DNA of 24,173 bases, from the NCBI GenBank assembly GCA_964618805.1, contig CAZUBM010000024.1, positions 1 to 24,173 of the forward strand. The letters run 5' to 3'. The position numbers were made by a program, and so were the translations under genes. Positions 981 through 21,966 of this stretch are shown one piece after another. A model generated the notes under the pieces. That model saw nothing but the letters and a program-made list of their open reading frames with translations, was not told the origin of the DNA and did no database searches. This stretch comes from an uncultured Nitrososphaerota archaeon. Its GTDB lineage: Archaea > Korarchaeota > Korarchaeia > Korarchaeales > Korarchaeaceae. Positions within the stretch are counted from its first letter, which is position 1, and every line of letters begins with the position of its first letter.

Positions 981-1010
981 AATGTGCACCTCTATTGAGT
1001 AGAGCCAAGG

Positions 1011-1028
1011 CCTTTTTATAAGCTTTTC
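1011..1028 (-). promoter_or_regulatory. Archaeal BRE + TATA promoter for the substrate-binding protein gene
   Basis: Minus strand reads GAAAAG-CTTATAAAAAGG, a purine-rich BRE followed directly by a TATA box, 30-45 nt upstream of ATG 980. Confidence 0.65.
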
Positions 1029-1078
1029 TAGGGTTCTAGAACGTCTCGTATAGAATTTAATCTTCATGCCTTTTAAAT

Positions 1079-1930: not shown

Positions 1931-1946
1931 GTGCTCACCATGAGCA

Positions 1947-3917: not shown

Positions 3918-3918
3918 C

Positions 3919-4797: not shown

Positions 4798-4806
4798 CCA
4801 ATCACC

Positions 4807-5784
4807 CTAGTCATAGGTGATACGAGGGTCTAGGAAGGCGTAAATAATGTCAGTTATTAGATTGGCCAATACAACCATGACAGCAGTCATCATCGTTGTT
4901 CCCATTATTACTGGATAGTCCCTCGTGAAAGTGGCATCTACAATTAACCTTCCCATGCCAGGCCAAGCGAATACTGTCTCAATTAAGACAGCACCAGATA
5001 ACAGAAAACCAAAAGCGAGTCCTATAGCCGTAACAAATGGGAGCAAAGCATTTCTAAGTGCGTGCTTATAAATTACTACTCTCTCTTTTAGTCCCTTCAT
5101 CCTTGCAGTCATTATGTAGTCCTTTGACAACACTTCCAGCAGGCTTGATCTAAGCAATCTAGTCAAGTAAGCTGTCCTAAGGTATCCAAGGGTCATTGCA
5201 GGAAGTATGAGATGATATATCTGATCCTTAAGTGATTCCCAAAATGAGCCGTAGATAGCTCCTGTTGTAGCAGATCCGCACGTAGGCAACAGGCCTAATT
5301 TTACAGAGAAAAGAAGGATTAAGAGTATTCCCAACCAAAAACTGGGCATCGAGACTCCAAGGAGAGAAATTACTCTAGAAACGTTGTCTACAATTCCTCC
5401 TTCCTTGACAGCCGAGATCGTACCTAAGGGTATAGCCAACAAAATGGCAATTAGTTCGGCTGTTAGGACAAGTTTTATCGTGTTTGGAATTCTTATCATT
5501 ATTGCATCGCTTACAGCTCTGTGAGTTATGAACGAATATCCCATGCTGCCTGAGATAAGCATCTTAAGCCACGAAACATATTGAACCAAGATAGGATCGT
5601 TTAAGTGATACTTTTCCCTTAGGAATTCGATGGTCTCGATGGAAACTCGTGGGTTAAAACCCAAAAAGAACTGAAATGGATCCCCGGGTGCTGCATGAAT
5701 TATCGTGAACACTATTATTGAAATTGCAAACAGAGTAGGTAAGGCAATGAAGCTTCTCCTTACTACGTAATCTTTCAAGGCCAT
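4807..5784 (-). CDS. dppB: Oligopeptide/dipeptide ABC transporter permease
   Basis: APGDP, SMPSFWLG, DYIMTARMKGL, KHALRNA, ETVFAWPGMG, RDYPV, YAFLDPRI. Start is ATG 5784 or TTG 5790. Confidence 0.95.
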   Translation of the reverse strand: MALKDYVVRRSFIALPTLFAISIIVFTIIHAAPGDPFQFFLGFNPRVSIETIEFLREKYHLNDPILVQYVSWLKMLISGSMGYSFITHRAVSDAIMIRIPNTIKLVLTAELIAILLAIPLGTISAVKEGGIVDNVSRVISLLGVSMPSFWLGILLILLFSVKLGLLPTCGSATTGAIYGSFWESLKDQIYHLILPAMTLGYLRTAYLTRLLRSSLLEVLSKDYIMTARMKGLKERVVIYKHALRNALLPFVTAIGLAFGFLLSGAVLIETVFAWPGMGRLIVDATFTRDYPVIMGTTMMTAVMVVLANLITDIIYAFLDPRITYD

Positions 5785-5869
5785 TATCAAGAGAGCATTT
5801 TCAAATAAATAAAAAAATAACTATTCTGGCTTTTCTTATACATTTGAAAGGGAGCGATCCGTAAATCGC

Positions 5870-6161: not shown

Positions 6162-7553
6162 ATGGGTTTAGGAAATCTTCTGGAGGATATCTTCAAAAAT
6201 GTTCCAGATTATAAGCACTTTATGACTGTTGACGAACTTAATGAGTCCTCAAAGAGCCTTGCCGAAGAATACAAGGAAGTCGTACAATTAAAGGAAATAG
6301 GTAAATCTAGAGATGGAAAACCCATTTTTTCTTTAAAAATAGGGAATGGAGGGTTGAACGCTGTCCTTTTTGCATTTCCTCATCCCAATGAACCAGTTGG
6401 TAGCATGATGTTGGAGTACTTATCAAATGTGTATGCACAAAACGAGGAATTGAGGAAAAACATGGGCTTCACCCTTCATATCGTTAAGGTATCGGATCCT
6501 GATGGGGCTAAACTTAACGAAAACTGGTTTAAGGGACCATTTACCCCTCTGAACTATGCCTTAAACTATTACAGACCAGCTGGAAATCAGCAGGTTGAAT
6601 GGACCTTTCCGATAAAGTACAAGAACTTGAATTTTAACAAACCGATTCCCGAAACAAAAGCATTAATGAAATTAATAGATGAAACTAAGCCTGATTTCAT
6701 CTACTCTCTTCATAATGCTGGTTTCGGTGGAGTCTACTATTACCTAAGTCATGACATACCCCTTCTCTATCCAATTTACCAATACATAGCCCTCAAACAA
6801 GAATTACCTCTAAGCCTCGGAGAACCAGAGATGCCATATGCGATCAAGTTTGCCGATGCTGTGTATTCTCTACCAAGCACAAAAGAAAGATATGATTATT
6901 TAGAGAAGCATTCAGAAAAAGATCCTGCAGAGATAATAAAAAGTGGGACATCTAGCGTGGATTATGCGAAAAGGGTCAATCCTAACGTATGTGAGCTTGT
7001 TTGCGAAGTTCCATACTATTACGATCCAAGGATCAATAATCTCTCAGAATCTGATGTTATTAGAAAGGATGCTATACTATCAAAACTCGATTTTAGAGAA
7101 GACCTCTACAAATTCTTGTATGACAGATTCAAAGGAATACACAATCTCCTGACGAGACCATCTAGGTTCAAGGAATCGATAGAATATTTCCTTGAGGTAG
7201 GGCTAGAATCCATAAAAGCCGAAAGAAATTGGGCAAAGAATAATCCGGAGTTAGAGAGGCCTGCAACAGTAGCTGAGAAGTTTGACAACGAATTGGTCAG
7301 CAAGTTCTACTCCATGCTAATTACTGGCCTTTTCTTGAGGATGATAACTTACCAATTAGAGCTAGGTTTTGACAAAAGGCTATCAGATTTGGCAGAAAAG
7401 GTAAAAGAGAGGCTTTCAGAATTAGATGAGATCGTTGAAAGGGAAATGAATTACAGCGTAATTCCCATAAAAAAGCTCGTCACCGTTCAACTAGCTGCTG
7501 GTCTATATACGATGCTTTACGTCAAGGAAATTAGACGCAAGTATCAATCTTAA
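6162..7553 (+). CDS. M14 family zinc carboxypeptidase-like protein
   Basis: IGKSRDG, HxxE zinc motif FPHPNEPVG, DPDG, third ligand YSLHN, and CEVPY (candidate catalytic Glu). No signal peptide. Confidence 0.85.
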   Translation: MGLGNLLEDIFKNVPDYKHFMTVDELNESSKSLAEEYKEVVQLKEIGKSRDGKPIFSLKIGNGGLNAVLFAFPHPNEPVGSMMLEYLSNVYAQNEELRKNMGFTLHIVKVSDPDGAKLNENWFKGPFTPLNYALNYYRPAGNQQVEWTFPIKYKNLNFNKPIPETKALMKLIDETKPDFIYSLHNAGFGGVYYYLSHDIPLLYPIYQYIALKQELPLSLGEPEMPYAIKFADAVYSLPSTKERYDYLEKHSEKDPAEIIKSGTSSVDYAKRVNPNVCELVCEVPYYYDPRINNLSESDVIRKDAILSKLDFREDLYKFLYDRFKGIHNLLTRPSRFKESIEYFLEVGLESIKAERNWAKNNPELERPATVAEKFDNELVSKFYSMLITGLFLRMITYQLELGFDKRLSDLAEKVKERLSELDEIVEREMNYSVIPIKKLVTVQLAAGLYTMLYVKEIRRKYQS

Positions 7554-7701: not shown

Positions 7702-9075
7702 CTATCTACAGTAGTACTTTGCCGCTAAGTAGAGAGCATGAGCCGCCAAAACCGCCCTTTCTGGAGAAGAAAAAACTGGTATCCCCTTTTTCTGAAGTCT
7801 GCTCGATTGCTTTTTAGTATATGATCCTCCAGAGGCTACGGCTAAAATTGGTTTGCCATATTCTTTCATCCTTGGAACTATGTCGACGATCTCCTCTTCT
7901 AATGGAGTATCTTGAAAGACGAAGAACACTATTAGGATATCAACACACATATCTTCGAGCAAAGATCTCATAGAAACCTCGTAATCCTTGGCAGTCGCGC
8001 TACCTGTTAAGTCGACTGGATTTCTAACTATAGCATAGGGAGGCAATCTCCTCCTTAATTCTCTCTTCGTCCTCTCTGAATATTCAGCAAGCTTCAATCC
8101 TCTCTTAATTATTTCGTCTGTTGCCATCACGCATGGACCAGCTCCATTTGTTACCATAGCAATTCGAGGACCAGCAGCTAACGGGAGCATTGAAAGAGCC
8201 TTCGATACATCATATAGCTCTTCAAATGTTTTGACTTCAATAACACCACATTGTTTGAAAGCGGAGGAAATTATTTCATATGAGCCTGCGATTGATCCTG
8301 TATGAGAAACTGCAGCTTTCGATCCCTCTTCCGTTCTGCCAGACTTCAGTACAACAATGGGCTTTTTCCTAGACACTTCTCTACATGCCTTCATGAACTT
8401 TCTTCCATTTGAAATGCTCTCAGCATAAATTGCTATAACCTTAGTCTCAGGATCTTGCCCCAAATATCTTACTAAGTCTGCCTCATCCACATCTGCCCTA
8501 TTACCATAGCTAACAAATTTGCTGATTCCCACTCCATCCTCCGCAGCCCACTCCAAAAAAGCACAGCCAAAAGTTCCGCTTTGAGTGAGAAATGCTATAC
8601 CTCCCTTGGGAGGTCTCAACATTCTCTCCCTAGATTGAAAGAAGGTATCTAGCCTGGTTTTTCCGTCAAAAATTCCTATGCAGTTAGGACCAATTACTCT
8701 CATTCCATACCTCCGAGCTATTTGAGCTATCGCTCTCTCCATCTCAGCCCCTTCTTGTCCTACTTCCTTAAAGCCTCCGGAGACTATAACCACCGCTTTA
8801 ATTCCCTTCTTCCCGCATTCTTCTACTACTTCAGGAACGATTCTTGGAGGGATAGAGAGAACTGCTAGGTCTACCTTTCCAGGGATTTCCAGTACGCTTT
8901 TGTAGCATTTGAGTCCTAAAATCTCATCAGCCCTTGGGTTTACGGGGTAAATATCTCCCTTGTACTCTCCCTTAACAAGACTTCTTAGTATTTCATGTCC
9001 TATTTTACCCGGTTTTGTTGATGCGCCAATTACAGCAACAGATCTGGCCTTAAAGAAATAGTCGAGGTTCTTCAT
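7702..9075 (-). CDS. acdA: Acetate/acyl-CoA ligase (ADP-forming), alpha subunit
   Basis: CoA-binding domain VAVIGAS...YPVNP, IGPNCIG, TQSG, SYGNRADV, phospho-His motif AVSHTGSIAG, TNGAG, NPVDLTG. No ATP-grasp domain. Start is ATG 9075 or 9105. Confidence 0.92.
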   Translation of the reverse strand: MKNLDYFFKARSVAVIGASTKPGKIGHEILRSLVKGEYKGDIYPVNPRADEILGLKCYKSVLEIPGKVDLAVLSIPPRIVPEVVEECGKKGIKAVVIVSGGFKEVGQEGAEMERAIAQIARRYGMRVIGPNCIGIFDGKTRLDTFFQSRERMLRPPKGGIAFLTQSGTFGCAFLEWAAEDGVGISKFVSYGNRADVDEADLVRYLGQDPETKVIAIYAESISNGRKFMKACREVSRKKPIVVLKSGRTEEGSKAAVSHTGSIAGSYEIISSAFKQCGVIEVKTFEELYDVSKALSMLPLAAGPRIAMVTNGAGPCVMATDEIIKRGLKLAEYSERTKRELRRRLPPYAIVRNPVDLTGSATAKDYEVSMRSLLEDMCVDILIVFFVFQDTPLEEEIVDIVPRMKEYGKPILAVASGGSYTKKQSSRLQKKGIPVFSSPERAVLAAHALYLAAKYYCR

Positions 9076-9230
9076 AGATTTTCCATCCAATAGGTTCTTT
9101 TTCATTTATCAAGTTGAGGAACATAGTTAAGTTGCCATCCTAGTAATAATCACGTATCATAATGGAATTTTGTCAGGAGCTGATCATCTTTTTTATCTAC
9201 TGCCCTCATACCTTAATAGGTGAGAAGACA

Positions 9231-10859: not shown

Positions 10860-10862
10860 TTT

Positions 10863-10893
10863 CCTCTCATTTTTATGATAGAAAAATGAGAGG
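10863..10893. repeat. Inverted repeat, 12-bp perfect arms with 7-nt loop, right after the PAP2 stop (possible terminator or operator)
   Basis: CCTCTCATTTTT-atgatag-AAAAATGAGAGG read directly from the sequence. Confidence 0.85.
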
Positions 10894-10901
10894 TTAATCG
10901 T

Positions 10902-10927
10902 TGAGCCTAAAAAGCTTTTTAGGCTCA
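10902..10927. repeat. Perfect 26-bp palindrome
   Basis: TGAGCCTAAAAAGCTTTTTAGGCTCA equals its own reverse complement. Confidence 0.95.
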
Positions 10928-10971
10928 TTCTCTAAGTCCTTTCATTACAGAAAGCAAAAATGAGGTTATAT

Positions 10972-10993
10972 TCCTTAAACCCGGGTTTAAGGA
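10972..10993. repeat. Perfect 22-bp palindrome
   Basis: TCCTTAAACCCGGGTTTAAGGA equals its own reverse complement. Confidence 0.95.
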
Positions 10994-11150
10994 TGCTATT
11001 TCATATAAATTCCCAATAGCTAAATATAATGTAATCTTATTCTATGATATAAAGAAATATCTTTGAAAATAAACGAAAAGATCACCTACGGTCATTTCCA
11101 GTGTAATGGCGTTATTTCTCATTAGGTGACTTTATAAGAAGAGGCCCGCG

Positions 11151-11164
11151 TCCTCCTAGGAGGA
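11151..11164. repeat. Perfect 14-bp palindrome containing a GGAGG RBS-like arm
   Basis: TCCTCCTAGGAGGA equals its own reverse complement. Confidence 0.8.
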
Positions 11165-11352
11165 GAGTGAAAACAAATGGATCAATCTTACAGAGACGTT
11201 CGAGAGTCTCTGAGCACGATCAGTTGCACTCTCAGGATTATACCTCATATAATATTTCAGCAGGCCTTACATGCCCAGAAGATGTTGGCTTCTCTTGCCT
11301 GGAAGTCCGTTCCTATAGTGTAAATATTTTTAACTAAGAGAGAGGGAGGGGA

Positions 11353-11634
11353 TTGAAGAGCGAGATGCCAGTTGGTAGCAAGCTTCTACCTAGCCAGAAA
11401 ATCAAGGTTTCAAGAGGAAAAGTCCATATCATAGAAGAAAGATGCAAAGGGTGCGGTCTGTGCATTGATTTCTGTCCCAGACAAGTTCTTCGTAGATCTA
11501 ACCATGTGAATGAGAAAGGATACCACGTTGCGGAATTTGTTGAAGAGCCTGAAGAAGGAAAAATCTGTGTTGCCTGCGGCTTTTGTCAAGTTATTTGTCC
11601 AGAATATGCTATCTGGGTGGAGAAAGTTGAATAA
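11353..11634 (+). CDS. korD: 2-oxoacid:ferredoxin oxidoreductase delta subunit (2x[4Fe-4S] ferredoxin-like)
   Basis: CKGCGLCIDFCP and CVACGFCQVICP motifs, NEKGYH; first gene before korA. TTG start with GGAGGGGA RBS; alternative ATG at 11365. Confidence 0.9.
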   Translation: MKSEMPVGSKLLPSQKIKVSRGKVHIIEERCKGCGLCIDFCPRQVLRRSNHVNEKGYHVAEFVEEPEEGKICVACGFCQVICPEYAIWVEKVE

Positions 11635-11657
11635 CTTTTTCGATTGGGGGGATACAA

Positions 11658-12809
11658 TTGGGAAAGGCTGTTCTGACTGGAAAGCACTTTTGGTACGGTA
11701 ATATTGCAATAGCTGAGGGTGCTATAGCTGCAGGCTGTCGATTTTTCGCAGGATATCCAATAACCCCTGCCAGCGAGATTGCAGAACATATTTCCAGAAG
11801 ATTTCCAGAAGTTGGTGGAATATTCGTTCAATTTGAGGATGAACTCGCTTCTATGGCAGCAATCTTAGGAGCCTCTTGGGCGGGGGTTAAGTCTATGACT
11901 GCAACTTCGGGTCCAGGCTTCAGCCTTATGATGGAGAACATAGGGCTTGGTGTAATGATGGAAGTTCCGGTAGTCGTTGTGGACGTCCAGCGAGGCGCTC
12001 CAAGCACAGGTCTTCCAACACTTACGGCTCAGGGAGATGTTATGCAAGCAAAATGGGGAAGTCATGGACAGTACGAGATAATTGCACTTTCACCTGAGTC
12101 CCCACAAGAAGCTTTTGACCTTACAATACGTTGCTTTAACCTTGCTGAGAAGTATCGAGTTCCTGTCATCTTACTTGCAAGCGAATCTGTTTGTCATAGT
12201 GCTGGAAAGGTAGTGGTCCCGCCCGAGGAGGAAATAGAACTTGTATACAGGAAAAAACCTAGGGTTCCTCCTGAGGAGTATTTGCCATATAAGCCTGATG
12301 AAGACTTAATTCCTCCGATGGCATGTGCAGGAGAGGGGTACTCGATTAAGACAACAGGTCTTACACACGACGAGAAAGGCTATCCGGATACATCTCCCGA
12401 AGCTCAAGAGAAGCTTGTGAGACGACTGAATGACAAAATTAGAGTGCATAGAGAGGAAATTGTTGATGTAGAAGAGGATTTCATGGACGATGCTGAAATT
12501 GCTGTTGTCTCATACGGCCAAGTCTCCCGTCCAGCAAAGAGGGCAGTTAAGATGGCAAGAGAAGAAGGAATCAAAGCTGGTAGCATAAGATTAATCACTG
12601 TCTGGCCTTTCGCAGAACACATCATTAGGAAGTGGGCAAAGCAGGTTGATTACTTCATAGTTCCTGAGTTAAACTACGGCCAGATCTACTTAGAAGTAAA
12701 AAGAGAAGCTTGTGGGAATGCTGAAACCATACTAGTAGCAAGAATGGGGGGTAGGCTGATTACACCTGATGAGATCTATAGAGAGATCAAGAAGGTTAGT
12801 GGGAGGTGA
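11658..12809 (+). CDS. korA: 2-oxoacid:ferredoxin oxidoreductase alpha subunit (KorA type)
   Basis: FFAGYPITP, QFEDELAS, TATSGPG, DVQRGAPSTGLPT, QAKWGSHG, VPELNYGQ. Confidence 0.93.
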   Translation: MGKAVLTGKHFWYGNIAIAEGAIAAGCRFFAGYPITPASEIAEHISRRFPEVGGIFVQFEDELASMAAILGASWAGVKSMTATSGPGFSLMMENIGLGVMMEVPVVVVDVQRGAPSTGLPTLTAQGDVMQAKWGSHGQYEIIALSPESPQEAFDLTIRCFNLAEKYRVPVILLASESVCHSAGKVVVPPEEEIELVYRKKPRVPPEEYLPYKPDEDLIPPMACAGEGYSIKTTGLTHDEKGYPDTSPEAQEKLVRRLNDKIRVHREEIVDVEEDFMDDAEIAVVSYGQVSRPAKRAVKMAREEGIKAGSIRLITVWPFAEHIIRKWAKQVDYFIVPELNYGQIYLEVKREACGNAETILVARMGGRLITPDEIYREIKKVSGR

Positions 12810-12816
12810 AAAATGA

Positions 12817-13656
12817 ATGAAAGAAGCTTATGAGTTGCTACATCCGATAGATAGGTGGCTTAGAACCGAGCGGATGCCTCACATCTGGTGTCCTGGATGC
12901 GGCATAGGTGCCACGATACATGCTTGGGTAAGAGCTCTTGAGAGGGTTGGAATAGAGAAAGACAAAGTAGTTTACGTTTCAGGCATAGGATGTTGCGGCA
13001 GAGGTTCTGGCTATTTGGACGTAGATGGATTTCACACAACCCATGGGAGGGCCATCCCCTTTGCAGTTGGGTTAAAGCTAGCTAAGCCAGAGCTTTGCGT
13101 AACAGTAATATCTGGAGATGGAGATCTCTTTGCAATTGGTGGGAATCATTTCATTCATGCTTGCAGGAGGAACAATGACCTGCTAGTTATCTGTGTTAAT
13201 AACTTCATTTATGGGATGACCGGAGGCCAGCTTGCACCTACCACCCCCCATGGGGGCTATTCTACTACCAGCCCATATGGGAACATTGAGCACCCGTTTA
13301 ACACACCTCACTTAGCTGATGCAGCAGGAGCTGTGTATGTAGCGAGATGGACAAGTGTCCATGTTAGAGAACTCGAGATGTCAATAGCTGAAGCTCTAAG
13401 GATGAAAGGATTTAGGTATATCGAGGTTCTTTCTCCCTGTCCGGTGAATTTTGGAAGAAGGAACAACTTCCCCGAGCCAGATGATATGGCAAAGTGGTTC
13501 GCTAAATCGTCAATCATCAGACATGGAGCAAATACAAGCGAGGTAGCGATTGAGATAGGGAAACCCATTATTCTAGGGAATTTTGTTAAGAGAGAAGAGA
13601 AACCCACATATTATGAGTTGTTAAAGAAACTGGAGGAGATGAGGCGGGGAAGATGA
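12817..13656 (+). CDS. korB: 2-oxoacid:ferredoxin oxidoreductase beta subunit (TPP-binding)
   Basis: PHIWCPGCG, SGIGC, HTTHGRA, GDGD...NN TPP motif, YGMTGGQ, SPCP. Confidence 0.93.
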   Translation: MKEAYELLHPIDRWLRTERMPHIWCPGCGIGATIHAWVRALERVGIEKDKVVYVSGIGCCGRGSGYLDVDGFHTTHGRAIPFAVGLKLAKPELCVTVISGDGDLFAIGGNHFIHACRRNNDLLVICVNNFIYGMTGGQLAPTTPHGGYSTTSPYGNIEHPFNTPHLADAAGAVYVARWTSVHVRELEMSIAEALRMKGFRYIEVLSPCPVNFGRRNNFPEPDDMAKWFAKSSIIRHGANTSEVAIEIGKPIILGNFVKREEKPTYYELLKKLEEMRRGR

Positions 13657-14225
13657 GGGCCAGAAGGGAAGTTATGTTTGCAGGATTTGGCGGGCAAGGA
13701 ATTATAACGGCTGGCTATATTGTGGGTAGAGCTGCTGCTGTTTACGATGACAAGGAGGCTACCTTGACTCAAGCCTATGGGCCAGAGGCCAGAGGATCTA
13801 CCTGCTATAGTGGTGTAGTGATAGATGAGGAGGAGATAGATTATCCTTACCTCCTTAATCCAGAGGTTATGGTTATAATGAGCAAAGACGCGTACGAGAA
13901 ATTCTTGCCTAGACTTAGAAAAGGAGGTATTCTTATCGTTGATAGCTCGATAGTTAAGCCTGATGAGCGGACAAGGGATTATGTGGTTTATGAAGTGCCG
14001 GCCACGGAAGTTGCTGAAAGACTTGGAGCCAGAATTGTGGCAAATGTTATCATGTTAGGCTTCTTAGGAAAGGTCTGGGATGCTGTAAGCGTTGAAGCTT
14101 TAAGGGAATCAGTAAAGACAACGGTTCCTAGAAAGTACCTAGAACTAAACCTTAGAGCATTTGAAAAGGGGGTTGAGCTAGGAGAGAAGGCCCTTAAAGA
14201 GAGAGCTGAGATGGTGACCGGTTAA
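13653..14225 (+). CDS. korC: 2-oxoacid:ferredoxin oxidoreductase gamma subunit
   Basis: FAGFGGQG, QAYGPEARG, ANVIMLG, NLRAFEKG; ATGA overlap with korB. Confidence 0.92.
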   Translation: MRARREVMFAGFGGQGIITAGYIVGRAAAVYDDKEATLTQAYGPEARGSTCYSGVVIDEEEIDYPYLLNPEVMVIMSKDAYEKFLPRLRKGGILIVDSSIVKPDERTRDYVVYEVPATEVAERLGARIVANVIMLGFLGKVWDAVSVEALRESVKTTVPRKYLELNLRAFEKGVELGEKALKERAEMVTG

Positions 14226-16229
14226 ATGGAGGTAGTGCCGGTGTCCCATTCGAATGCTAGCGATAGAGGTTATGAAAAGGAAAGAATAGGTGTATTTGTT
14301 TGTCACTGTGGCAGAAATATCGCTGCGACCGTTGACGTCAAAGAAGTTGTTAAAAGGATCTCTAAACACCCAGCAGTAGTTCATGCAGAGGACTATGAAT
14401 ACATGTGCAGCAGACCTGGCCAAGAACTCATAGAAAAGGCTATTGAGGAGAAGCGATTGACTGGAGTAGTTGTGGCAGCTTGCTCACCCTCGATACACGA
14501 AACAACTTTTAGAGAAGTTGTAGAGCGTGCTGGCCTCAACCCTTACAAGTGTGAGATGGCAAACATTCGAGAACAGTGTAGTTGGGTTCATGAAGAGGTA
14601 GATAAAGCTACAGAAAAGGCAGTAAGGCTGATCAGAGGGGTCATCGAGAAAGTTATCAGGAACGAAGAACTTGAGCCAATCGAAGTAGGCCTTCACAAGA
14701 AGGCACTTGTGATAGGCGGAGGAATTGCTGGAATAAGAGCTGCTCTTGATATCGCGAATGCTGGCTTTCAGGTAATTTTAGTGGAGAAGAAACCGACAAT
14801 CGGGGGACACATGGCCCAGTTGGCTGAGACATTTCCGACACTTGACTGCGCCCAGTGCATTTTGACCCCCCTTATGAGCGAAGTTGCTAATCACCCGAAC
14901 ATCAGGCTTCTAACCCTCTCAGAAGTTGTGGATGTCGAGGGGTACGTAGGCAACTTTCACGTCCGCATTAAGAAGAACCCGAGATACGTGGATCCAGATA
15001 AATGCAATCTTTGTGACAATTGTACAGAAGTCTGCCCTGTAGTTGTGCCTTCGGAGTTTGATGAAGGACTAAGCCTTAGAAAGGCCATTTATATACCCTT
15101 CCCGCAAGCCGTTCCTTCTTCTTATGTGATAGATCCTGATGCTTGTCTTGGAATGAACCCAATTATCTGTGGTAAGTGTGCAGAACCGGATGTCTGTGGC
15201 CCAGGAGCCATCAACTTCTACGATCAGCCAGAGATCATAGAGGAGGATGTAGGAGTTATAATTGTTGCGACAGGATACGAGCTTTACAATCCAGAAAATC
15301 TCAGCGAGTATGGCGCCGATAAATATCCTGACATCATAACTTCCCTCCAGTTCGAGCGCCTGCTATCGCCTAATGGTCCAACAGGGGGAATTCCTAAGAG
15401 GCCTAGCGACGAGAAGATCCCTAAGAAGATAGCTTTCATTCACTGTGCTGGTTCAAGAGATGAGAAGCACATACCTTACTGTAGTAATATCTGCTGCACC
15501 TATTGCTCCAAACACGGCCTTCTGTTCAAGGAGCTGGTACCTGATGCTGAAGTTTATTCCTTTTACATTGATATAAGGGCTGTTGGAAAGAATTACGAAG
15601 ATTTCGTTAAGAGGGCCCAAGAAGAAGCTGGGATTCAGTTTATCAGAGGAAAAGTCTCTAGAATTTATGAAGAAGATGGAAAAGTGAAGATCTTCGCTGT
15701 AGACACTTTGCTAAATAGAAGAATAGAAATGGATGTCGACATGGCAGTTTTAGCCTTACCAATAGTTCCAGCTAATGGCATTGCAGATTTGGCTAGCAAG
15801 ATGCGAATTCAGATCGATAACTATGGATTCCTTCAGGAACTTCATCCAAAACTTCATCCTGTAGAATCAGCAACTCCAGGCATCTTCTTGGCTGGTGCAG
15901 CTCAGTCTCCAAAGGACATACAGGATACTGTTGCTCAGGCTAGCGCAGCTGCAAGCAAGGCGCTCGAAATCCTTACACAGGAAAAAATAAGCCATACACC
16001 AACTGTTGCTGTCATAGATAGAGACATATGTAGTGGATGTCGCCTCTGCATTTCTGTCTGTCCATATGGGGCCATAGAGCTAGTAGATGGAAGGGCTGAA
16101 GTCAATGAGATAATATGTGAAGGGTGTGGGGCATGCGTTTCCACATGTCCATCAGGTGCCATACGCTTGAGGAACTTCACCGATGAACAGCTTGATTCCA
16201 TGATTGAAGCCGTTGCTGGAGGGACATAA
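14226..16229 (+). CDS. hdrA: Heterodisulfide reductase flavoprotein subunit A
   Basis: IGVFVCHCG, AACSP, ANIREQCSWVH, FAD motif GGGIAG, TFPTLDCAQC, inserted ferredoxin domain, HCAGSRD..YCSNICC, and a C-terminal 2x[4Fe-4S] domain. Start is ATG 14226 or GTG 14241 (GGAGGT RBS). Confidence 0.96.
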   Translation: MEVVPVSHSNASDRGYEKERIGVFVCHCGRNIAATVDVKEVVKRISKHPAVVHAEDYEYMCSRPGQELIEKAIEEKRLTGVVVAACSPSIHETTFREVVERAGLNPYKCEMANIREQCSWVHEEVDKATEKAVRLIRGVIEKVIRNEELEPIEVGLHKKALVIGGGIAGIRAALDIANAGFQVILVEKKPTIGGHMAQLAETFPTLDCAQCILTPLMSEVANHPNIRLLTLSEVVDVEGYVGNFHVRIKKNPRYVDPDKCNLCDNCTEVCPVVVPSEFDEGLSLRKAIYIPFPQAVPSSYVIDPDACLGMNPIICGKCAEPDVCGPGAINFYDQPEIIEEDVGVIIVATGYELYNPENLSEYGADKYPDIITSLQFERLLSPNGPTGGIPKRPSDEKIPKKIAFIHCAGSRDEKHIPYCSNICCTYCSKHGLLFKELVPDAEVYSFYIDIRAVGKNYEDFVKRAQEEAGIQFIRGKVSRIYEEDGKVKIFAVDTLLNRRIEMDVDMAVLALPIVPANGIADLASKMRIQIDNYGFLQELHPKLHPVESATPGIFLAGAAQSPKDIQDTVAQASAAASKALEILTQEKISHTPTVAVIDRDICSGCRLCISVCPYGAIELVDGRAEVNEIICEGCGACVSTCPSGAIRLRNFTDEQLDSMIEAVAGGT

Positions 16230-16230
16230 G

Positions 16231-16644
16231 ATGAGTGGAGAGTATAAGCCTAGGATTATCGCATTCCTTTGTAGATGGTGCGGTTACGCTGGGGCAGATA
16301 TGGCGGGAACTTCTCGCCTAAAGTATCCCCCCTCTATCATACCAATTAGAGTTCCTTGTACCGGAAGGATCGATATGGAACAAGTTCTAAAGGCACTAAA
16401 GAGATCTGATGGTGTTCTCATCGCAGGTTGTCACACTCCGGGGGATTGCCACTATGTTCGCGGTAATTTCCAATGCTTTAAGCGAGTTACTCTTCTTAAG
16501 AAGTTTCTAAGGCAAATGGGAATAAATCCAGCAAGAGTTAGGTTAGAATGGATCTCCGCAACTGAAGGAAGGAAGTTCGCCAGAGTAGTAAGAGAATTCA
16601 CTAAAGAATTGGAGGAGCTAGGTCCGTTGAGGGGAGTGGAATGA
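16231..16644 (+). CDS. mvhD: F420-non-reducing hydrogenase iron-sulfur subunit D ([2Fe-2S])
   Basis: FLCRWCGYAGADMAG, RVPCTGR, AGCH.PGDCHY..GN, WISATEG. ATG 16231 lies 1 nt after the hdrA stop. Confidence 0.95.
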   Translation: MSGEYKPRIIAFLCRWCGYAGADMAGTSRLKYPPSIIPIRVPCTGRIDMEQVLKALKRSDGVLIAGCHTPGDCHYVRGNFQCFKRVTLLKKFLRQMGINPARVRLEWISATEGRKFARVVREFTKELEELGPLRGVE

Positions 16645-17633
16645 AGATAAAGTTGGCTGTTGGTTACGGCTCGATTTGCGGAGGATGCGATGTTGCATTT
16701 ATCGATCTGGGTGAAAAGTTAATAGACCTAACAGAACTGGTAGACATAGTCTTTTGGCCGGCTCTAGTGGATACCAAAGAAGAAGACCTGAGGAAGCTTA
16801 AGGAAATAGATGTAGGCATGTTCTTTGGTGCAATACGTACCGATAAGCATAAGGCTACCCTTGAACTCCTTAGGGAGAAAGCTCGCTTGCTCGTAGCATT
16901 TGGAACCTGTGCATGCTATGGTGGAGTTCTTGGGCTTGCAAATGCTGCTAGGAGCATGGATTTACTTAAAACCGGATATGTAATAACAAAGAGCACAGAA
17001 AACCCGAAACAAATCCTTCCAGGCTTAGAAAAATTAGAGGGAATACCTATAAGCATTCCAAAGATTAGGAGCTTGGTATCCCCAATTAGCGATTTTGTAG
17101 ATGTTGATATATGGGTGCCTGGTTGTCCGCCGCCTGTTGATTCCATCATTAAACTGTTAGACGTCTTAAAAGACTATCAGCGCGGTCACTTGCCACCAAA
17201 GGGGCTGTTCATTGCTGAGGACAGGAGTTTATGTGAATTTTGTGATCGAGAGAAGCCAGAGGTGTTACAAATAGAGAAGTTTAGAAGAGTTCATGAGGGC
17301 AAGATTGACGAAAAAGAATGCCTATTGAAACAGGGGATCCTTTGCCTTGGACCAGTAACAAGAGGGGGCTGCGGAGCGAGATGCATCAAAGCTAATATGC
17401 CATGTAGAGGATGCTTTGGACCTGTTCCAAATGTAGAAGATCAGGGAACTAAATTCATCACGGCTGTAGCGGCCGCATTAAAGGCGGGAGAGGAAAGGGA
17501 AGTTGGTGAGGAGGAGTTGAAAAAACTTATCGAGGAGATTCATGACCCTCTAGGGCTCTTCTACATGTTCTCTCTTGCCGCCTCCATAATAAACAGGAAA
17601 TATTTGGATTTGGGAGGAGATGAAGATGAGTAG
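16641..17633 (+). CDS. mvhG: Group 3c [NiFe]-hydrogenase small subunit
   Basis: CGGCD, FGTCACYGG, PGCPP, SLCEFC, CLL..G.LCLGPVTRGGCGARC...NMPCRGCFG. Confidence 0.93.
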   Translation: MKIKLAVGYGSICGGCDVAFIDLGEKLIDLTELVDIVFWPALVDTKEEDLRKLKEIDVGMFFGAIRTDKHKATLELLREKARLLVAFGTCACYGGVLGLANAARSMDLLKTGYVITKSTENPKQILPGLEKLEGIPISIPKIRSLVSPISDFVDVDIWVPGCPPPVDSIIKLLDVLKDYQRGHLPPKGLFIAEDRSLCEFCDREKPEVLQIEKFRRVHEGKIDEKECLLKQGILCLGPVTRGGCGARCIKANMPCRGCFGPVPNVEDQGTKFITAVAAALKAGEEREVGEEELKKLIEEIHDPLGLFYMFSLAASIINRKYLDLGGDEDE

Positions 17634-19095
17634 TAAGGAGAAAAATGTGATTATAATTGAACCTGTAACGAGGCTCGAAGGAGAGGCCAAAATCAGCATA
17701 ATATTAGATGAGGAAGGAAATGTTAAGGATGCTTATTTTCAAGTAATGGATTACAGGGCTTTTGAGAAGCTCTTAATTGGTAGACAGGCAGAGGAAGTAC
17801 CGAGGATAGCAGCTCGTATCTGTGGAGTTTGCTCCTGGGCCCATCACATGGCCGCTGTGAAAGCCCTAGATGACCTCTTTGGCAGGGAACCTACACAACC
17901 TGCCAAAAAGTTGAGAGAGCTCTCTTATTGTGCTCACATAATCCATAGTCACTTAATACACTTCTTTCTATTCGCATCTCCGGACCTTTTCCTCTCACCA
18001 GAAGAAAAGCCGTCGGTGAGGAACTTCATCGGTCTCCTTAGAAAGCATCCGGAGTTGTTAAGGGAAGCATTAAAGTGGCATACGGAAGCGGAGAAAATCC
18101 AAGAGATGATTGGAGGTAAAGCTATTCATCCTCCATTTGCGATCCCAGGAGGGGTAAGCAAGTCCTTGACTGAGGAAGAGAGAGCAGAAATAATGGAGAA
18201 AACTAAGGGATTTCTTGATTTCGCCTTAAATTCCTTGGCATTCTTCAAAAAGAAAGTAATTGAAAATGAAAAGTATAGAGATCTCTTCTTCGGCGATCTT
18301 TATCGCTTGGAGACATATTACATGGGCTTAGTGGATGAAAATAATCAGATCAACTTCTACGATGGGAAGATAAGGGTCATAGATCCAATGGGCTATGAGA
18401 ATGCCAAGTTCGATTGCTATGATTACCTCGATTACATAGCAGAGAGGGTTGAGGGATGGACTTACACCAAGTTCCCCTACCTGAAAAAAGTAGGATGGAC
18501 GGGGCTTAAGGACGGGAAGGAAAGCGGGGTTTATAGAGTGAATTCACTGCCCCGCCTAAACGTCTCTGATGGAATGCCCACTCCCAAGGCTCATGAGGCT
18601 TACAAGGATTTCGTAGATACTCTGGGTCACCCAGCTCATGCGACTTTAGGCTTTCATTGGGCAAGATTGATTGAGATAATCTATGGCGCTGAGAGAATGT
18701 TAGAACTCTTGGAAGATCCAGAAATCGTCAGTAAGGACGTTATGAATTACACAGGAGAATACAAAGGAGAGGGCATAGGAGTGGTGGAAGCGCCACGTGG
18801 AACATTGATTCATCATTATGAAGCTAATGATGATGGAATAATCACAAATTGTAACCTTATAGTGCCGACGACTATGAATAACGCGGCCATTTGCATGGAA
18901 ATTAGGAACTCAGCTAGTAAGCTTATAAAAGGCGGGAATGTCCCGGAGGGGGTTCTAAATCGCGTTGAAATGGCTTTTAGAGCGTACGATCCTTGTCTCT
19001 CATGCTCTACGCATTCACTACCTGGTGAAATGCCCCTTGAGGTCGTTGTAATGACACAAGATGGGAAGGTGTTAAGGAGGCTGAGGAGGAGTTGA
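17626..19095 (+). CDS. mvhA: Group 3c [NiFe]-hydrogenase large subunit
   Basis: EPVTRLEG, L1 RICGVCSWAH, GGKAIHP, HWARLIE, EAPRGTLIHHY, L2 RAYDPCLSCSTH followed by a 26-aa cleavable tail. Start is ATG 17626 or 17620. Confidence 0.95.
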   Translation: MSSKEKNVIIIEPVTRLEGEAKISIILDEEGNVKDAYFQVMDYRAFEKLLIGRQAEEVPRIAARICGVCSWAHHMAAVKALDDLFGREPTQPAKKLRELSYCAHIIHSHLIHFFLFASPDLFLSPEEKPSVRNFIGLLRKHPELLREALKWHTEAEKIQEMIGGKAIHPPFAIPGGVSKSLTEEERAEIMEKTKGFLDFALNSLAFFKKKVIENEKYRDLFFGDLYRLETYYMGLVDENNQINFYDGKIRVIDPMGYENAKFDCYDYLDYIAERVEGWTYTKFPYLKKVGWTGLKDGKESGVYRVNSLPRLNVSDGMPTPKAHEAYKDFVDTLGHPAHATLGFHWARLIEIIYGAERMLELLEDPEIVSKDVMNYTGEYKGEGIGVVEAPRGTLIHHYEANDDGIITNCNLIVPTTMNNAAICMEIRNSASKLIKGGNVPEGVLNRVEMAFRAYDPCLSCSTHSLPGEMPLEVVVMTQDGKVLRRLRRS

Positions 19096-19562
19096 ATAAC
19101 GTCTTGGTGTTAGGCTGGGGTAATCCTATACTTGGCGATGATAGTTTAGGAGTTAGAGTTGCCGAGAAATTGAAGAAAATGGGGCTCCCAAAGGAAATAA
19201 AGATAGAATGCTCTTCTTCCTCGCCTTTCTCAGTGGTTAGGAAGATGCTTAACTATAGAAAGGTTATTATAGTGGATTCTCTTAGGCTTCCGCACGTTAA
19301 AGAAGGGAAGGTGTTCAAATTCAATTTAAAGGAGTTTTGTGGCTCATCAGTCATCATTAACCCACACAGCATCAGTCTTCCTGCTGCGTTCGAAATCTAC
19401 AGAACCCTATACCCCGACCAGGTTCCAAAAGAAGTACTCGTCATAGGCGTTTGCGTAGGCCCCCCCAAAGTTGGTGAAGGCTTATCGGATGAGATAAAGG
19501 CCAAAATTGACGAGGTGGTGGAGTTAGTTATGAAGGAGATAGGGGGTGAGAGAAATGAATGA
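19092..19562 (+). CDS. Hydrogenase maturation endopeptidase (HycI/HybD family)
   Basis: LGWGNPILGDDSLG, IIVDS, PHS motif; TTGA overlap with the mvhA stop. Confidence 0.9.
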   Translation: MNNVLVLGWGNPILGDDSLGVRVAEKLKKMGLPKEIKIECSSSSPFSVVRKMLNYRKVIIVDSLRLPHVKEGKVFKFNLKEFCGSSVIINPHSISLPAAFEIYRTLYPDQVPKEVLVIGVCVGPPKVGEGLSDEIKAKIDEVVELVMKEIGGERNE

Positions 19563-19926
19563 GTTGGCTAAAAAAGTAATAGAGATTAGCGGCCAAAACG
19601 TCTACAGTTGCTATCAGTGTGGTTGCTGTAGCGCAGGATGCATGTTTACAGAGAAGATGGATATCCTGCCTAATCAAGCAATAGCCCTTATCCAGAGAGG
19701 GGATAGAAGTGTTCTTGAGAAGGAGACCCCGTGGATATGTGCATCCTGTTTTGTCTGCACTGTGAGATGCCCAAGGGGTCTGGATGTAGCAGCTATCATG
19801 GAAGCTTTAAGAGAGATAAGGATAAGGGAGAGAGGCTTCGTAAGGGTGGACCTTAGGAAGATCGAGAACATAGAGAGGCTGCCACAAATAGCTATAACAG
19901 CTGTAGCTCAGAAGTTCACGTGGTGA
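19555..19926 (+). CDS. hdrC: Heterodisulfide reductase subunit C (short form)
   Basis: CYQCGCCSAGC and WICASCFVCTVRCPRG...IMEALR; ATG 19555 with GGGGTGA RBS. Confidence 0.9.
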   Translation: MNELAKKVIEISGQNVYSCYQCGCCSAGCMFTEKMDILPNQAIALIQRGDRSVLEKETPWICASCFVCTVRCPRGLDVAAIMEALREIRIRERGFVRVDLRKIENIERLPQIAITAVAQKFTW

Positions 19927-19931
19927 TTGAA

Positions 19932-20807
19932 ATGAGAGTCCTGTTTTATCCCGGTTGTTCCCTTAAGAACAACTATCCTGAGTTCGAAAAAAGCTCACTT
20001 GAGGTCTGCAAGAGACTTGGAATTGAGCTCTTGGAGATCCCTAGATGGACTTGCTGTGGGGTCAACTTCAGTCTTGCTACAGATAACGTGATGAGACATC
20101 TAGGAGCAGTTCGCTCACTCATCAATGCTCAAGAGAAGGGAAAGGAAATTGGAACTAAAAGAGTTGTCACAGCATGCTCCATGTGCTACAACGTTTTGAA
20201 AAGGGTTAATCTGACATTAAGGGAGGAACCTGATAAGTTGGACACTATAAATGCCTTTATCGATGATCAACCGAACTACGTTCCTGAGCTAGAAATAATA
20301 CACCTTCTTACTCTGCTAAAAGAGATAGGCTTTGAAAGAGTTAAGGAAAAAGTTATTAGGCCCTTAAAAGGATTAAGAGTTGCATCTTACTATGGATGTG
20401 CCCTTCTTAGGCCCAATAAACCTGCTGGCATCCCTGTAGATAACTCAGAGAGTCCAACCATATTTGAAGACCTTATGAGCAGCATAGGTGCTGAACCTAT
20501 CGATTTCCCCTTCAAAACCGAGTGTTGCGGTAATTATCACGTTGTGTTTAGGCCTGATATTGTTGAGATGAGGACTGGGAAGATAATCGGATCTGCAAGG
20601 TCAAGAGGAGCCGATATCATTGTTTCTACATGCCCTCTGTGCTTATACAACCTTAAAAGAGGGAATGATGCCCTTGAAAAGGGTGAGAGAGTTCCAATCG
20701 TTTTCTTCACTCAGCTACTGGCATTGGCGCTAGGTGTTAACTCCTATCTAGGGGATGAGATTAAGCAGGAGATCTTAAGAAGGGTAGAGAGAAAAGGCCC
20801 TTCATAA
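19932..20807 (+). CDS. hdrB: Heterodisulfide reductase subunit B
   Basis: Two complete CCG domains, YPGC..WTCCG..TACSMC and YYGC..ECCG..STCPLC; ATG 19932 with GGTGA RBS. Confidence 0.93.
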   Translation: MRVLFYPGCSLKNNYPEFEKSSLEVCKRLGIELLEIPRWTCCGVNFSLATDNVMRHLGAVRSLINAQEKGKEIGTKRVVTACSMCYNVLKRVNLTLREEPDKLDTINAFIDDQPNYVPELEIIHLLTLLKEIGFERVKEKVIRPLKGLRVASYYGCALLRPNKPAGIPVDNSESPTIFEDLMSSIGAEPIDFPFKTECCGNYHVVFRPDIVEMRTGKIIGSARSRGADIIVSTCPLCLYNLKRGNDALEKGERVPIVFFTQLLALALGVNSYLGDEIKQEILRRVERKGPS

Positions 20808-20924: not shown

Positions 20925-21746
20925 TCAAAGACCGACAAGTCCTAGTGGAACCACCTCTATTCCTCTCTTTTCAAGCTCTCTTACAAATGGATTTATTCCA
21001 ACACAGTCAGATGCTATATGACCTGTAACTATTAGATTTCCTTCTAGTTCCTGGCTTGCTAGAATCTCCAAATCCCTTGGCTCTATATGAATGTATATCA
21101 AGGTATCGATACCGTGCTCAAAATAGGCCCTAGCAACATCACTACCGCCATTTGTTAGAGCTCCATGAGCAACCACTGCCCTTCCAACCCTATTATCCTC
21201 ATCCCCAAGCACAAGCATTATTGGAGTTTTTGCAAAGCTGAACTCCTTTAGTCTCATAAATGCCGACATAAGATCTTTTACTTTAGCATCACTCCCAATG
21301 TCGTCGACGACTTCCTGCATTATCCTTCTTCCAATCTCGTCTAAGGGGTTATGTATGTTCATGTAGCCTATGTTTAACGCTCTAGCCCCGCCAGGAGCTA
21401 GATCGTAATTTGCTTTGTGTGAGGATATCATTAGAGCTCGCATCTTTCTTTCTACTGCCTCATTAGCCACCTCCTTTGGAATTCCGTTCCTAACCATTAA
21501 GTCTACGTGCTTTCTAAATACCTTAAACTTCTCAATGGCAGCCCTTCCACCTTCTGGATGATGAGCTATTGCAGCATCACATCCAAGCATTTTTGCTAGC
21601 AATAAGCCAGGAACTCCCACATCTATGGCAAAAAGAACCTTATTAACCTCTTCTTTTGGATTATATATCTCGCTATCTGCGGGAATCGAATCAAATCCAG
21701 CCATTTCTAAAGCTAAATTCATTATCTCCTCAGTGCTCATTCCCAT
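20925..21746 (-). CDS. Nif3/DUF34-like dinuclear metal-centre protein
   Basis: KVLFAID, IAHHP, NIHNPLD and VTGHIASD match the Nif3 metal-ligand pattern. Start is ATG 21761, 21746 or 21740. Confidence 0.75.
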   Translation of the reverse strand: MGMSTEEIMNLALEMAGFDSIPADSEIYNPKEEVNKVLFAIDVGVPGLLLAKMLGCDAAIAHHPEGGRAAIEKFKVFRKHVDLMVRNGIPKEVANEAVERKMRALMISSHKANYDLAPGGARALNIGYMNIHNPLDEIGRRIMQEVVDDIGSDAKVKDLMSAFMRLKEFSFAKTPIMLVLGDEDNRVGRAVVAHGALTNGGSDVARAYFEHGIDTLIYIHIEPRDLEILASQELEGNLIVTGHIASDCVGINPFVRELEKRGIEVVPLGLVGL

Positions 21747-21966
21747 GATGATCAGAGTCATATATTGCCTTTCCTTAATTAACGAAGAGGTATAACTTCC
21801 TGCAACTATTAGCAGAAGATGACTTTCCGTTCAAACCCAGAACTTCTTATGATATTAGCTTTCATTCGACGATGGGCAATATCTTGAGGAGAAGGAAATT
21901 TCTTTATCAAACCCTAGATCAATCTAGTTCATTTAACCCAGAGCTGCCATGGTCATCTGATTATCT

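Follow-up and report, generated by a model that had tools for sequence, protein, structure and literature searches.

The 24,173-nucleotide (nt) stretch of DNA analysed here (the window) is the whole of contig C24 (CAZUBM010000024.1) of a draft genome (G000; 2.18 Mb, 62 contigs, 93.69% complete, 3.4% contamination) of an uncultured Nitrososphaerota vent archaeon from the family Korarchaeaceae. The window contains 11 plus-strand open reading frames (ORFs) at positions 11353–20807 (9455 nt), in the order korDABC (2-oxoacid oxidoreductase, Kor), hdrA, mvhD, mvhG, mvhA, a hydrogenase protease gene, hdrC and hdrB. Pfam and NCBIfam agree on the identity of all 11 genes. The successive gaps from korD to hdrB, measured from the longest-ORF starts, are 23, 7, −4, 0, −26, −4, −14, −4, −17 and −7 nt. 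The same-strand arrangement with tight junctions described in an earlier reading of the DNA letters alone (the sequence-only reading) is thereby borne out, the extremes being an overlap of 26 nt and a gap of 23 nt. This spacing suggests that the 11 genes form one tightly packed, cotranscribed operon. The last base of the korC TAA codon (14225) directly abuts the first base of the hdrA ATG codon (14226), as that reading had stated, with the caveat that an equally good in-frame GTG start lies at 14241 behind a GGAGGT motif at 14228–14233 and would widen the korC–hdrA gap to 15 nt. Solved HdrA proteins align with the hdrA product only from residue 16 on. Ribosome-binding sites had been claimed for the internal genes in general; GGAGG-like motifs are present ahead of korD, korA, korB, korC, mvhG, mvhA, the protease gene and hdrC, but no obvious motif of this kind is seen ahead of mvhD or hdrB.

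The first four genes encode all four Kor subunit types, represented by POR_N/PFOR_II, TPP_enzyme_C, POR and 2 × [4Fe-4S] domains. The delta subunit gene korD (11353–11634, 93 amino acids (aa)) matches Fer4 families of Pfam and encodes a ferredoxin-like protein with two [4Fe-4S] units. Its best NCBIfam match is OGOR_delta (53.3 bits, under the cut-off of 125), and its eight cysteines, arranged in two CxxCxxCxxxCP motifs, are invariant across 22 orthologues. The alpha subunit gene korA (11658–12809, 383 aa) matches POR_N (236.8 bits) and PFOR_II (80.7 bits) and surpasses the cut-off of NF006412, ‘2-oxoacid:acceptor oxidoreductase subunit alpha’ (559.4 against 411). PDB matches of KorA include 1yd7_A (423.5 bits) and the 2-oxoglutarate synthase alpha subunit 8ys5_A (261.4 bits). 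The beta subunit gene korB (12817–13656, 279 aa), which provides the thiamine pyrophosphate-binding subunit, matches TPP_enzyme_C (116.1 bits) and, below its cut-off of 364, NF007207, ‘2-oxoglutarate ferredoxin oxidoreductase subunit beta’ (268.6). The gamma subunit gene korC (13653–14225, 190 aa) overlaps korB by 4 nt and matches POR (127.6 bits) and NF006323 (200.6, under the cut-off of 235).

The Kor genes share the delta-alpha-beta-gamma order and the domain set with the operons of the OorDABC/KorABCD 2-oxoglutarate:acceptor oxidoreductases (names of PRK09626-09628 and PRK08441), an order that is presumably that of Helicobacter as well. The best NCBIfam names for the delta and beta subunits are 2-oxoglutarate-specific, and only the generic alpha model is over its cut-off. 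2-Oxoglutarate is a putative substrate of KorDABC, judged by family resemblance and gene context: sucC or sucCD adjoins kor at loci L028 and L106, and genes resembling thiol:fumarate reductase (Tfr) accompany it at L117, L133, L174 and L176. The window-type Kor clade is set apart from OorDABC/KorABCD by its frequent Hdr neighbour.

The seven downstream genes encode an Mvh-type hydrogenase and an Hdr module. HdrA (14226–16229, 667 aa) is the electron-bifurcating subunit, with flavin adenine dinucleotide (FAD) and multiple [4Fe-4S] clusters. It scores 835.2 with NF040770 (under the cut-off of 1100) and is a full-length homologue of solved HdrA proteins (8rvu_a, 696.4 bits; 5odc_A, 694 bits) over residues 16–663; many of its cysteines are invariant across 25 orthologues. 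The [2Fe-2S] adaptor between hydrogenase and HdrA is encoded by mvhD (16204–16644, 146 aa; FlpD, 163.6 bits; VhuD NF045873, 122.8, under the cut-off of 215). The [NiFe]-hydrogenase small and large subunits are encoded by mvhG (16641–17633, 330 aa; Oxidored_q6, 82.8 bits; VhuG NF045875, 199, under the cut-off of 450) and mvhA (17620–19095, 491 aa; NiFeSe_Hases, 125.6 bits; VhuA NF041785, 413.5, under the cut-off of 800). The N-terminal cysteine motif of MvhA is RICGVC (near residue 66); the C-terminal one, DPCLSCSTH, lies near residue 458 and has a C-terminal tail behind it. We take the two motifs to provide the metal ligands. The hydrogenase maturation endopeptidase gene (19092–19562, 156 aa) matches HycI (33.1 bits) and passes TIGR00072 (91.5 against a cut-off of 47.45). 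HdrC (19546–19926, 126 aa; Fer4_8, 34 bits) is a short subunit with 2 × [4Fe-4S] that scores 59.1 bits with QmoC and 57.3 bits with HdrC NF041779, both far under the cut-offs (350 for NF041779). HdrB (19920–20807, 295 aa) contains two CCG domains (CCG in two stretches, 76.3 bits) and scores similarly with the HdrB model TIGR03288 (147.9, cut-off 345) and with the fumarate-reductase anchor SdhE NF042965 (144.6, cut-off 500). All Hdr and Vhu equivalog cut-offs are missed; in the operon, the protease superfamily model and the generic alpha model of Kor are the only ones whose cut-offs are surpassed. With the window proteins as queries, the window's own hydrogenase is the sole Mvh-type hydrogenase found in G000.

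The synteny comparison proposed in the sequence-only reading revealed that kor–hdrA adjacency is not unique to this genome; uniqueness had been named there as a refuting outcome. Two other species of the genus (L004 and L005) have the same 11-gene order between the same flanks, and in two more (L006 and L007) the order matches up to the contig ends. In a sample of 41 genomes of relatives that includes G000, korA and hdrA occur together in nine, namely all five genomes of the genus, both of one genus from another family of the class and both of two genera from another class-level group. The more distant carriers of korDABC-hdrA in the phylum are G027, G028, G029 and G030. The remaining genera of the family are devoid of the pairing and carry korABC without korD or hdrA. 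In G027, hdrA is the sole gene added to korDABC, and in G029, korDABC is followed by an hdrA::mvhD fusion gene and then by hdrC and hdrB, while hydrogenase genes are missing. These two arrangements indicate that the conserved core consists of Kor and HdrA and not of Kor and hydrogenase. An operon fusion specific to the genus was also considered, and was dropped once korA–hdrA adjacency appeared in the wider phylum and across phyla. As a separate observation, the HdrA matches of several relatives contain a single in-frame TGA or TAG codon (G029:C13:3792-5756, G031:C26:31-1977, G019:C1:879867-881810 and others), which could represent a selenocysteine codon, a frameshift or a sequencing error; the window hdrA has no in-frame stop.

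The linkage extends across many phyla. A KorA alignment (A1) yielded 594 relatives in a species-representative genome collection, of which the best 80 (50–65% identity) were kept, and the neighbours of these KorA loci were called by local tblastn. HdrA or an HdrA-like protein is encoded within 6 kb at 51 of the 80 loci: a full HdrA is adjacent at 26, a partial or HdrA-like gene is adjacent at 15, and Hdr lies within 6 kb at 10. Hdr is missing from 21 loci, and the remaining 8 are cut by contig ends. The sources include Thermoplasmatota, Bathyarchaeia and Hermodarchaeota among the archaea, and Chloroflexota, Desulfobacterota-type ‘delta proteobacteria’, Clostridiales, Planctomycetota, Calditrichia, Cloacimonadota, Aminicenantes, Armatimonadota and others among the bacteria. 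The korC–hdrA distance in many phyla is −4 nt or less than ∼30 nt. In three metagenome-assembled genomes (MAGs) from Armatimonadota (L051), an unclassified bacterium (L052) and Actinomycetes (L070), hdrA is located between korA and korB. The hdrA-mvhD insertion is visible in its entirety in L052 and L070, and the L052 insert also holds an Flx-like pair (korD-korA-hdrA-mvhD-...-korB-korC). The proposal of the sequence-only reading that the oxidoreductase is the dedicated low-potential partner of HdrA thus finds strong comparative support in the 51 of 80 KorA loci and in the tight korC–hdrA junctions of many phyla.

Phylogenetic trees place the window proteins in clades with this linkage. In a KorA tree built with FastTree from 91 rows, a korD-bearing clade of 76 rows has a support of 87 and contains HdrA or HdrA-like neighbours in 60 rows, although 8 of the 76 had been fetched for being adjacent to Hdr. 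Outside this clade, 14 of 15 rows have neither korD nor Hdr. In an HdrA tree of 78 rows, the window HdrA falls into an 18-row clade with a support of 100, of which 16 rows adjoin Kor and/or Tfr-like genes; Mvh-only rows account for 42 of the other 60. The genus KorA groups with Thermoplasmatota and bacterial rows (Shimodaira–Hasegawa-like approximate likelihood ratio test, SH-aLRT, 91), apart from the korABC of its sister genera and from the other Thermoproteota Kor-Hdr clusters. Approximately unbiased (AU) tests, for which the groups were named post hoc, gave borderline results for a clade of the genus with its sister genera (p 0.052) and of the genus with G027-G030 (p 0.036). The tree positions suggest that the genus acquired the operon laterally.

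The MvhA alignment (A5) comprised 598 relatives, and the best 80 loci contain hdrA in 65 cases and kor in 6 (L111, L117, L123, L133, L174 and L176). A Bathyarchaeota record (L123) exhibits the gene order of the window. A Tfr-like flavoprotein of at least 50% identity is encoded at 7 of the 80 loci, and at L117, L133, L174 and L176 the Mvh hydrogenase, Hdr, a fumarate-reductase-like pair and Kor are combined into a single string. The nearest Mvh/Hdr relatives outside the genus (HdrA 65%, MvhD 64%, HdrC 61%) come from another ‘uncultured Nitrososphaerota archaeon’ (L109:6627-15500). This locus has hdrA-mvhDGA-protease-hdrCB in the window order, directly followed by an FeS and TfrA-like pair, with no kor in the 6.6 kb upstream.

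The operon is a presumably hydrogen-driven member of a family of Kor-Hdr gene clusters that is widespread and has been little studied. The module that follows hdrA-mvhD varies by lineage and is Mvh, Flx-like, GltD-like or HdrL-like. The Mvh hydrogenase form is found in the window, in Thermoplasmatota (L020, with the same 11-gene order) and in Hermodarchaeota (L069). An Flx-like NADH module, composed of Fer4_22 and NAD_binding_1 proteins, is found at L035 and L052, and a GltD-like protein occupies the donor position at L033. In MAGs of Dehalococcoidales (L030:9596-14678) and of a ‘delta proteobacterium’ (L067:9710-14685), korDABC is followed by an HdrL-like protein of 1120-1175 aa that unites a GltD-type NAD(P)H domain, a ferredoxin and HdrA-like parts; mvhD, an HdrD-like CCG protein gene and another hdrA come next. 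The order at L028 is hdrCB-hdrA-korDABC, an FeS protein gene, an Frd/Tfr-like flavoprotein gene, mvhD and sucC-sucD, a gene set that places Kor in a fumarate–succinate–succinyl-CoA–2-oxoglutarate context.

A bacterial, NADH-driven form of this cluster has been described. The reductive tricarboxylic acid (TCA) cycle ‘cluster 1’ of tubeworm symbionts and Thioflavicoccus mobilis reads frdB-frdA-hdrC-hdrB-korD-korA-korB-korC-hdrA-flxD-flxC-flxB-flxA (Rubin-Blum et al. 2019, PMC6315080), and its genes are expressed in the Escarpia laminata symbiont (PMC6315080). An Flx-Hdr-Kor-Tfr complex was proposed there that would shuttle electrons directly to the oxoglutarate enzyme and to thiol:fumarate reductase (PMC6315080). 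Exactly this Flx arrangement is found at L035, L046, L079 and L090, whose KorA proteins are 54–61% identical to that of the window. The window shares with the published cluster korDABC, hdrA and an MvhD/FlxD-type gene in line (window gaps 0 and −26 nt), as well as hdrC and hdrB. It differs in that MvhG, MvhA and the protease take the place of FlxCBA, hdrCB (19546–20807) lies downstream and not upstream, the host is archaeal, and Tfr/Frd-like genes are absent from the window and instead sit on contig C1 with a second hdrA-mvhD. With a [NiFe] hydrogenase in the FlxCBA position, the donor would be H2 instead of NADH. Both the family and its logic have been published for the bacterial form that uses NADH, and the window represents a presumably H2-driven archaeal variant with the fumarate-reductase part split off.

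The sequence-only reading had named no characterised example of such a system. This holds for biochemistry, as a full-text literature search found no biochemical test of a Kor-Hdr complex and no description of a hydrogenase-driven Kor-Hdr form, but it does not hold for the linkage and the complex hypothesis, both published in 2019 for the NADH-driven bacterial form (PMC6315080). The available supplements of PMC6315080 mention neither ‘hydrogenase’ nor ‘Mvh’. No kor-hdr linkage is described in the accessible portions of PMC12054007, PMC12542636, PMC12787533, PMC9723716, PMC2702500, PMC13518236, PMC5736913, PMC5947623, bioRxiv 2020.03.09.984617, PMC11237513, PMC8163825 and PMC12590816.

The second Hdr locus of G000 is located on the minus strand at G000:C1:255288-262984 (L016 289-7984) and encodes no donor module. 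Its string consists of an HdrC-like gene, hdrA2, mvhD2 and the genes for an FeS protein (367 aa), a TfrB/HdrD-like protein (402 aa, 2 × CCG; TfrB NF004898, 160 bits against a cut-off of 385), a 2Fe-2S/4Fe-4S protein (239 aa) and a flavoprotein resembling the TfrA subunit of thiol:fumarate reductase (552 aa; NF004900, 335 bits against a cut-off of 718). HdrA2 is 56% identical to the window HdrA, and MvhD2 could use the hydrogenase of the window. The set of TfrB-like, FeS and TfrA-like genes beside hdrA2-mvhD2 is comparable to the Hdr and fumarate reductase genes in the ‘succinate operon’ of Pseudoclostridium thermosuccinogenes, which combines fumarase, Flx-Hdr and a novel fumarate reductase (PMC7282089). 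The authors assume that this operon is a bifurcating unit in which fumarate reduction is the exergonic arm and ferredoxin is reduced (PMC7282089). Unlike the window, the succinate operon is NADH-driven and bacterial and, in the text consulted, without Kor. Elsewhere in G000, a class I fumarase, SucCD on C53 and one Complex1_49kDa-type gene are encoded, together with several other 2-oxoacid oxidoreductases, at least five ADP-forming acyl-CoA synthetase (ACD) paralogues and, on C9, a weak Flx-like pair.

The window operon contains all six subunit types of the methanogen MvhADG-HdrABC complexes, which form super-assemblies with Fwd/Fmd (5odc, 8rvu, 7bkb; PMC13518236), but it misses the Hdr/Vhu equivalog cut-offs and its HdrC is short at 126 aa. 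The genome check that the sequence-only reading had suggested argues against a methanogen. Neither mcrA (TIGR03256) nor ComA (PF02679) was found in the genome, a 93.69% complete draft in which absence is not proof. The methanogen reading was dropped on this account, and the heterodisulfide of coenzymes M and B (CoM-S-S-CoB), on which the earlier framing relied, is probably not the substrate. DsrC, glutamate dehydrogenase and citrate synthase were likewise not found in the 93.7% complete draft, with the same limit on absence, and DsrC was dropped as a candidate Hdr substrate. The logic would nevertheless be analogous to that of the methanogen complexes, in that low-potential electrons would flow to a CO2-fixing enzyme; judging from the gene content, the low-potential partner here would be Kor and not formylmethanofuran dehydrogenase.

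These observations are best accommodated, tentatively, by H2-driven bifurcation at HdrA with Kor as the low-potential arm and a disulfide/fumarate couple as the high-potential arm. MvhA would oxidise H2, and the electrons would reach the bifurcating FAD of HdrA by way of MvhG and MvhD. From there, one electron, brought to very low potential, would enter the iron-sulfur chain of KorD/KorB, directly or through ferredoxin, and such electrons would drive the conversion of succinyl-CoA and CO2 to 2-oxoglutarate at Kor. The other electron would run downhill through HdrC/HdrB to a disulfide, which would be regenerated by the soluble fumarate-reductase-like enzyme encoded on C1 beside the second hdrA-mvhD, with reduction of fumarate. 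Overall, fumarate + 2 H2 + CO2 (+ATP) would yield 2-oxoglutarate. The stoichiometry closes if each 2-oxoglutarate formed is matched with one disulfide and with one low-potential equivalent of two electrons. Gene content, tight junctions and the conserved linkage are observed features, and the reaction direction, the high-potential acceptor and any physical contact between Kor and HdrA are predictions of this model. A stronger version, in which KorDABC is docked on HdrA to form an H2-powered 2-oxoglutarate synthase supercomplex of a non-methanogenic archaeon, with fumarate as the sink via HdrBC and the Tfr-like enzyme, is fairly improbable. In such a docked assembly, the low-potential electrons would never leave protein, and the supercomplex would be a TCA-cycle counterpart of the Hdr-Mvh-Fwd super-assembly of methanogens.

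Several findings weigh against H2-driven bifurcation toward Kor. Synteny gives no direction. No thiol/disulfide carrier was identified, as the searches for ComA and DsrC in the 93.7% complete genome were empty. The fumarate-reductase-like genes on C1 have their own HdrA2 and MvhD2 outside the operon and therefore may form a separate complex. Among the Kor subunits, only the generic alpha model clears its curated cut-off, and the OGOR-specific models fall short. The 80-locus samples were taken from the top of the score ranking and not from genomes chosen at random, and rows of related sequences do not count as independent. Finally, the window and the genome resemble those of a peptide fermenter, with the Opp transporter, the M14 carboxypeptidase and the synthetase and oxidoreductase paralogues, a gene set from which Kor is expected to run oxidatively. 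Flavin-based bifurcating enzymes are reversible in principle, and the whole system could operate backward, as in the first of the two directions named in the sequence-only reading: Kor would oxidise 2-oxoglutarate derived from glutamate or peptides, HdrA would confurcate its electrons with thiol electrons from HdrBC, and Mvh would evolve H2. The peptide-fermenter-like context fits this reverse operation: the window encodes the Opp transporter, the carboxypeptidase and, two genes upstream of the operon, an ACD whose flanks are conserved in the genus, and the genome has many ACD and 2-oxoacid:ferredoxin oxidoreductase paralogues. Bifurcating hydrogenases are also described as reversible in PMC12590816. 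However, another reductant would be required for the oxidised disulfide, and the only linked candidate, the fumarate-reductase-like enzyme, is thermodynamically opposite in sense, given that fumarate oxidises thiols. Moreover, no glutamate dehydrogenase was found in the draft genome to supply 2-oxoglutarate, in relatives the cluster is joined by sucCD and fumarate reductase genes, and a reductive TCA setting is described for its published counterpart (PMC6315080). The reverse operation is considered rather unlikely. The context mildly favours H2-driven reductive carboxylation, the second direction of the sequence-only reading, over confurcating H2 evolution, because the draft genome encodes a Tfr-like enzyme beside hdrA2-mvhD2 as well as SucCD and fumarase, and the search for citrate synthase in it was empty.

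Alternatively, the gene linkage may reflect co-regulation only, with separate Kor and Mvh-Hdr enzymes that share a promoter and a free ferredoxin pool, without a direct channel or fixed coupling. This type of Kor can work alone, as 21 of the best 80 KorA loci have no nearby Hdr, and Mvh-Hdr commonly works without Kor, as the best 80 MvhA loci include 65 with hdrA and 6 with kor. KorD is, in addition, an ordinary ferredoxin-docking module. Shared regulation alone, however, does not readily explain why korC and hdrA meet in translational-coupling-type junctions of −4 nt in distant phyla, why hdrA is inserted between korA and korB at L051, L052 and L070, or why G027 adds hdrA alone to korDABC. 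The HdrA clade is also specifically tied to Kor or Tfr neighbours. Co-regulation without coupling is considered quite unlikely.

Mvh-Hdr genes are widespread among anaerobes that do not synthesise coenzyme M or B. The wiring of HdrA to a 2-oxoglutarate-type Kor, and often to a soluble fumarate reductase, offers a testable answer to the question of what Mvh-Hdr reduces in non-methanogens. If H2-driven bifurcation toward Kor is correct, two TCA-cycle reactions would serve as the low- and high-potential arms of one bifurcation, with H2, NADH and NADPH as interchangeable donors, and the hard CO2-fixing step from succinyl-CoA to 2-oxoglutarate would be driven without a free pool of low-potential ferredoxin. 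This would bear on how efficiently carbon is fixed, on hydrogen metabolism among archaea of vents and sediments, and on how bifurcating complexes evolved. The window contributes the archaeal, hydrogenase-driven form, whose fumarate-reductase part is found at the second Hdr locus.

The operon is flanked by peptide-use genes. An Opp-type ABC transporter is encoded on the minus strand at 3–5790, followed by an M14 carboxypeptidase gene (6162–7553) and an ADP-forming acyl-CoA synthetase alpha-type gene (7702–9105). The carboxypeptidase and synthetase genes are kept beside the operon in L004 and L005, and the synthetase gene in L007. On the 3′ side of hdrB lies a convergent gene (20925–21761). A small-subunit ribosomal RNA fragment on C27 scores 449.4 bits over 515 nt with the archaeal model and 523.5 bits over 822 nt with the bacterial model, and is higher per base with the archaeal one. 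Rfam and tRNA scans of the window gave no matches. A bacterial-type terminator scan gave 6 hits against 9.3 ± 3.6 in shuffled sequences, with no excess, and a bacterial-type promoter scan, whose model does not cover archaeal promoters, gave 14 against 16.7 ± 3.6, likewise with no excess.

The 493-nt intergenic region upstream of korD (10860–11352), which is devoid of plus-strand ORFs of at least 60 aa, is the presumed promoter and leader of the operon. A 48-codon ORF at 11177–11323 with a Shine-Dalgarno-like motif was considered, but L004 and L005 show no more than weak similarity at its N-terminus and L007 lacks it, and it is not claimed as a gene. In a genus-level alignment of the upstream region, two A/T boxes are conserved, namely TTTATAAG (near 11133) and AATATTTTTAAC (near 11322), with a conserved CTCC..GGAG repeat between them (window 11100–11345).

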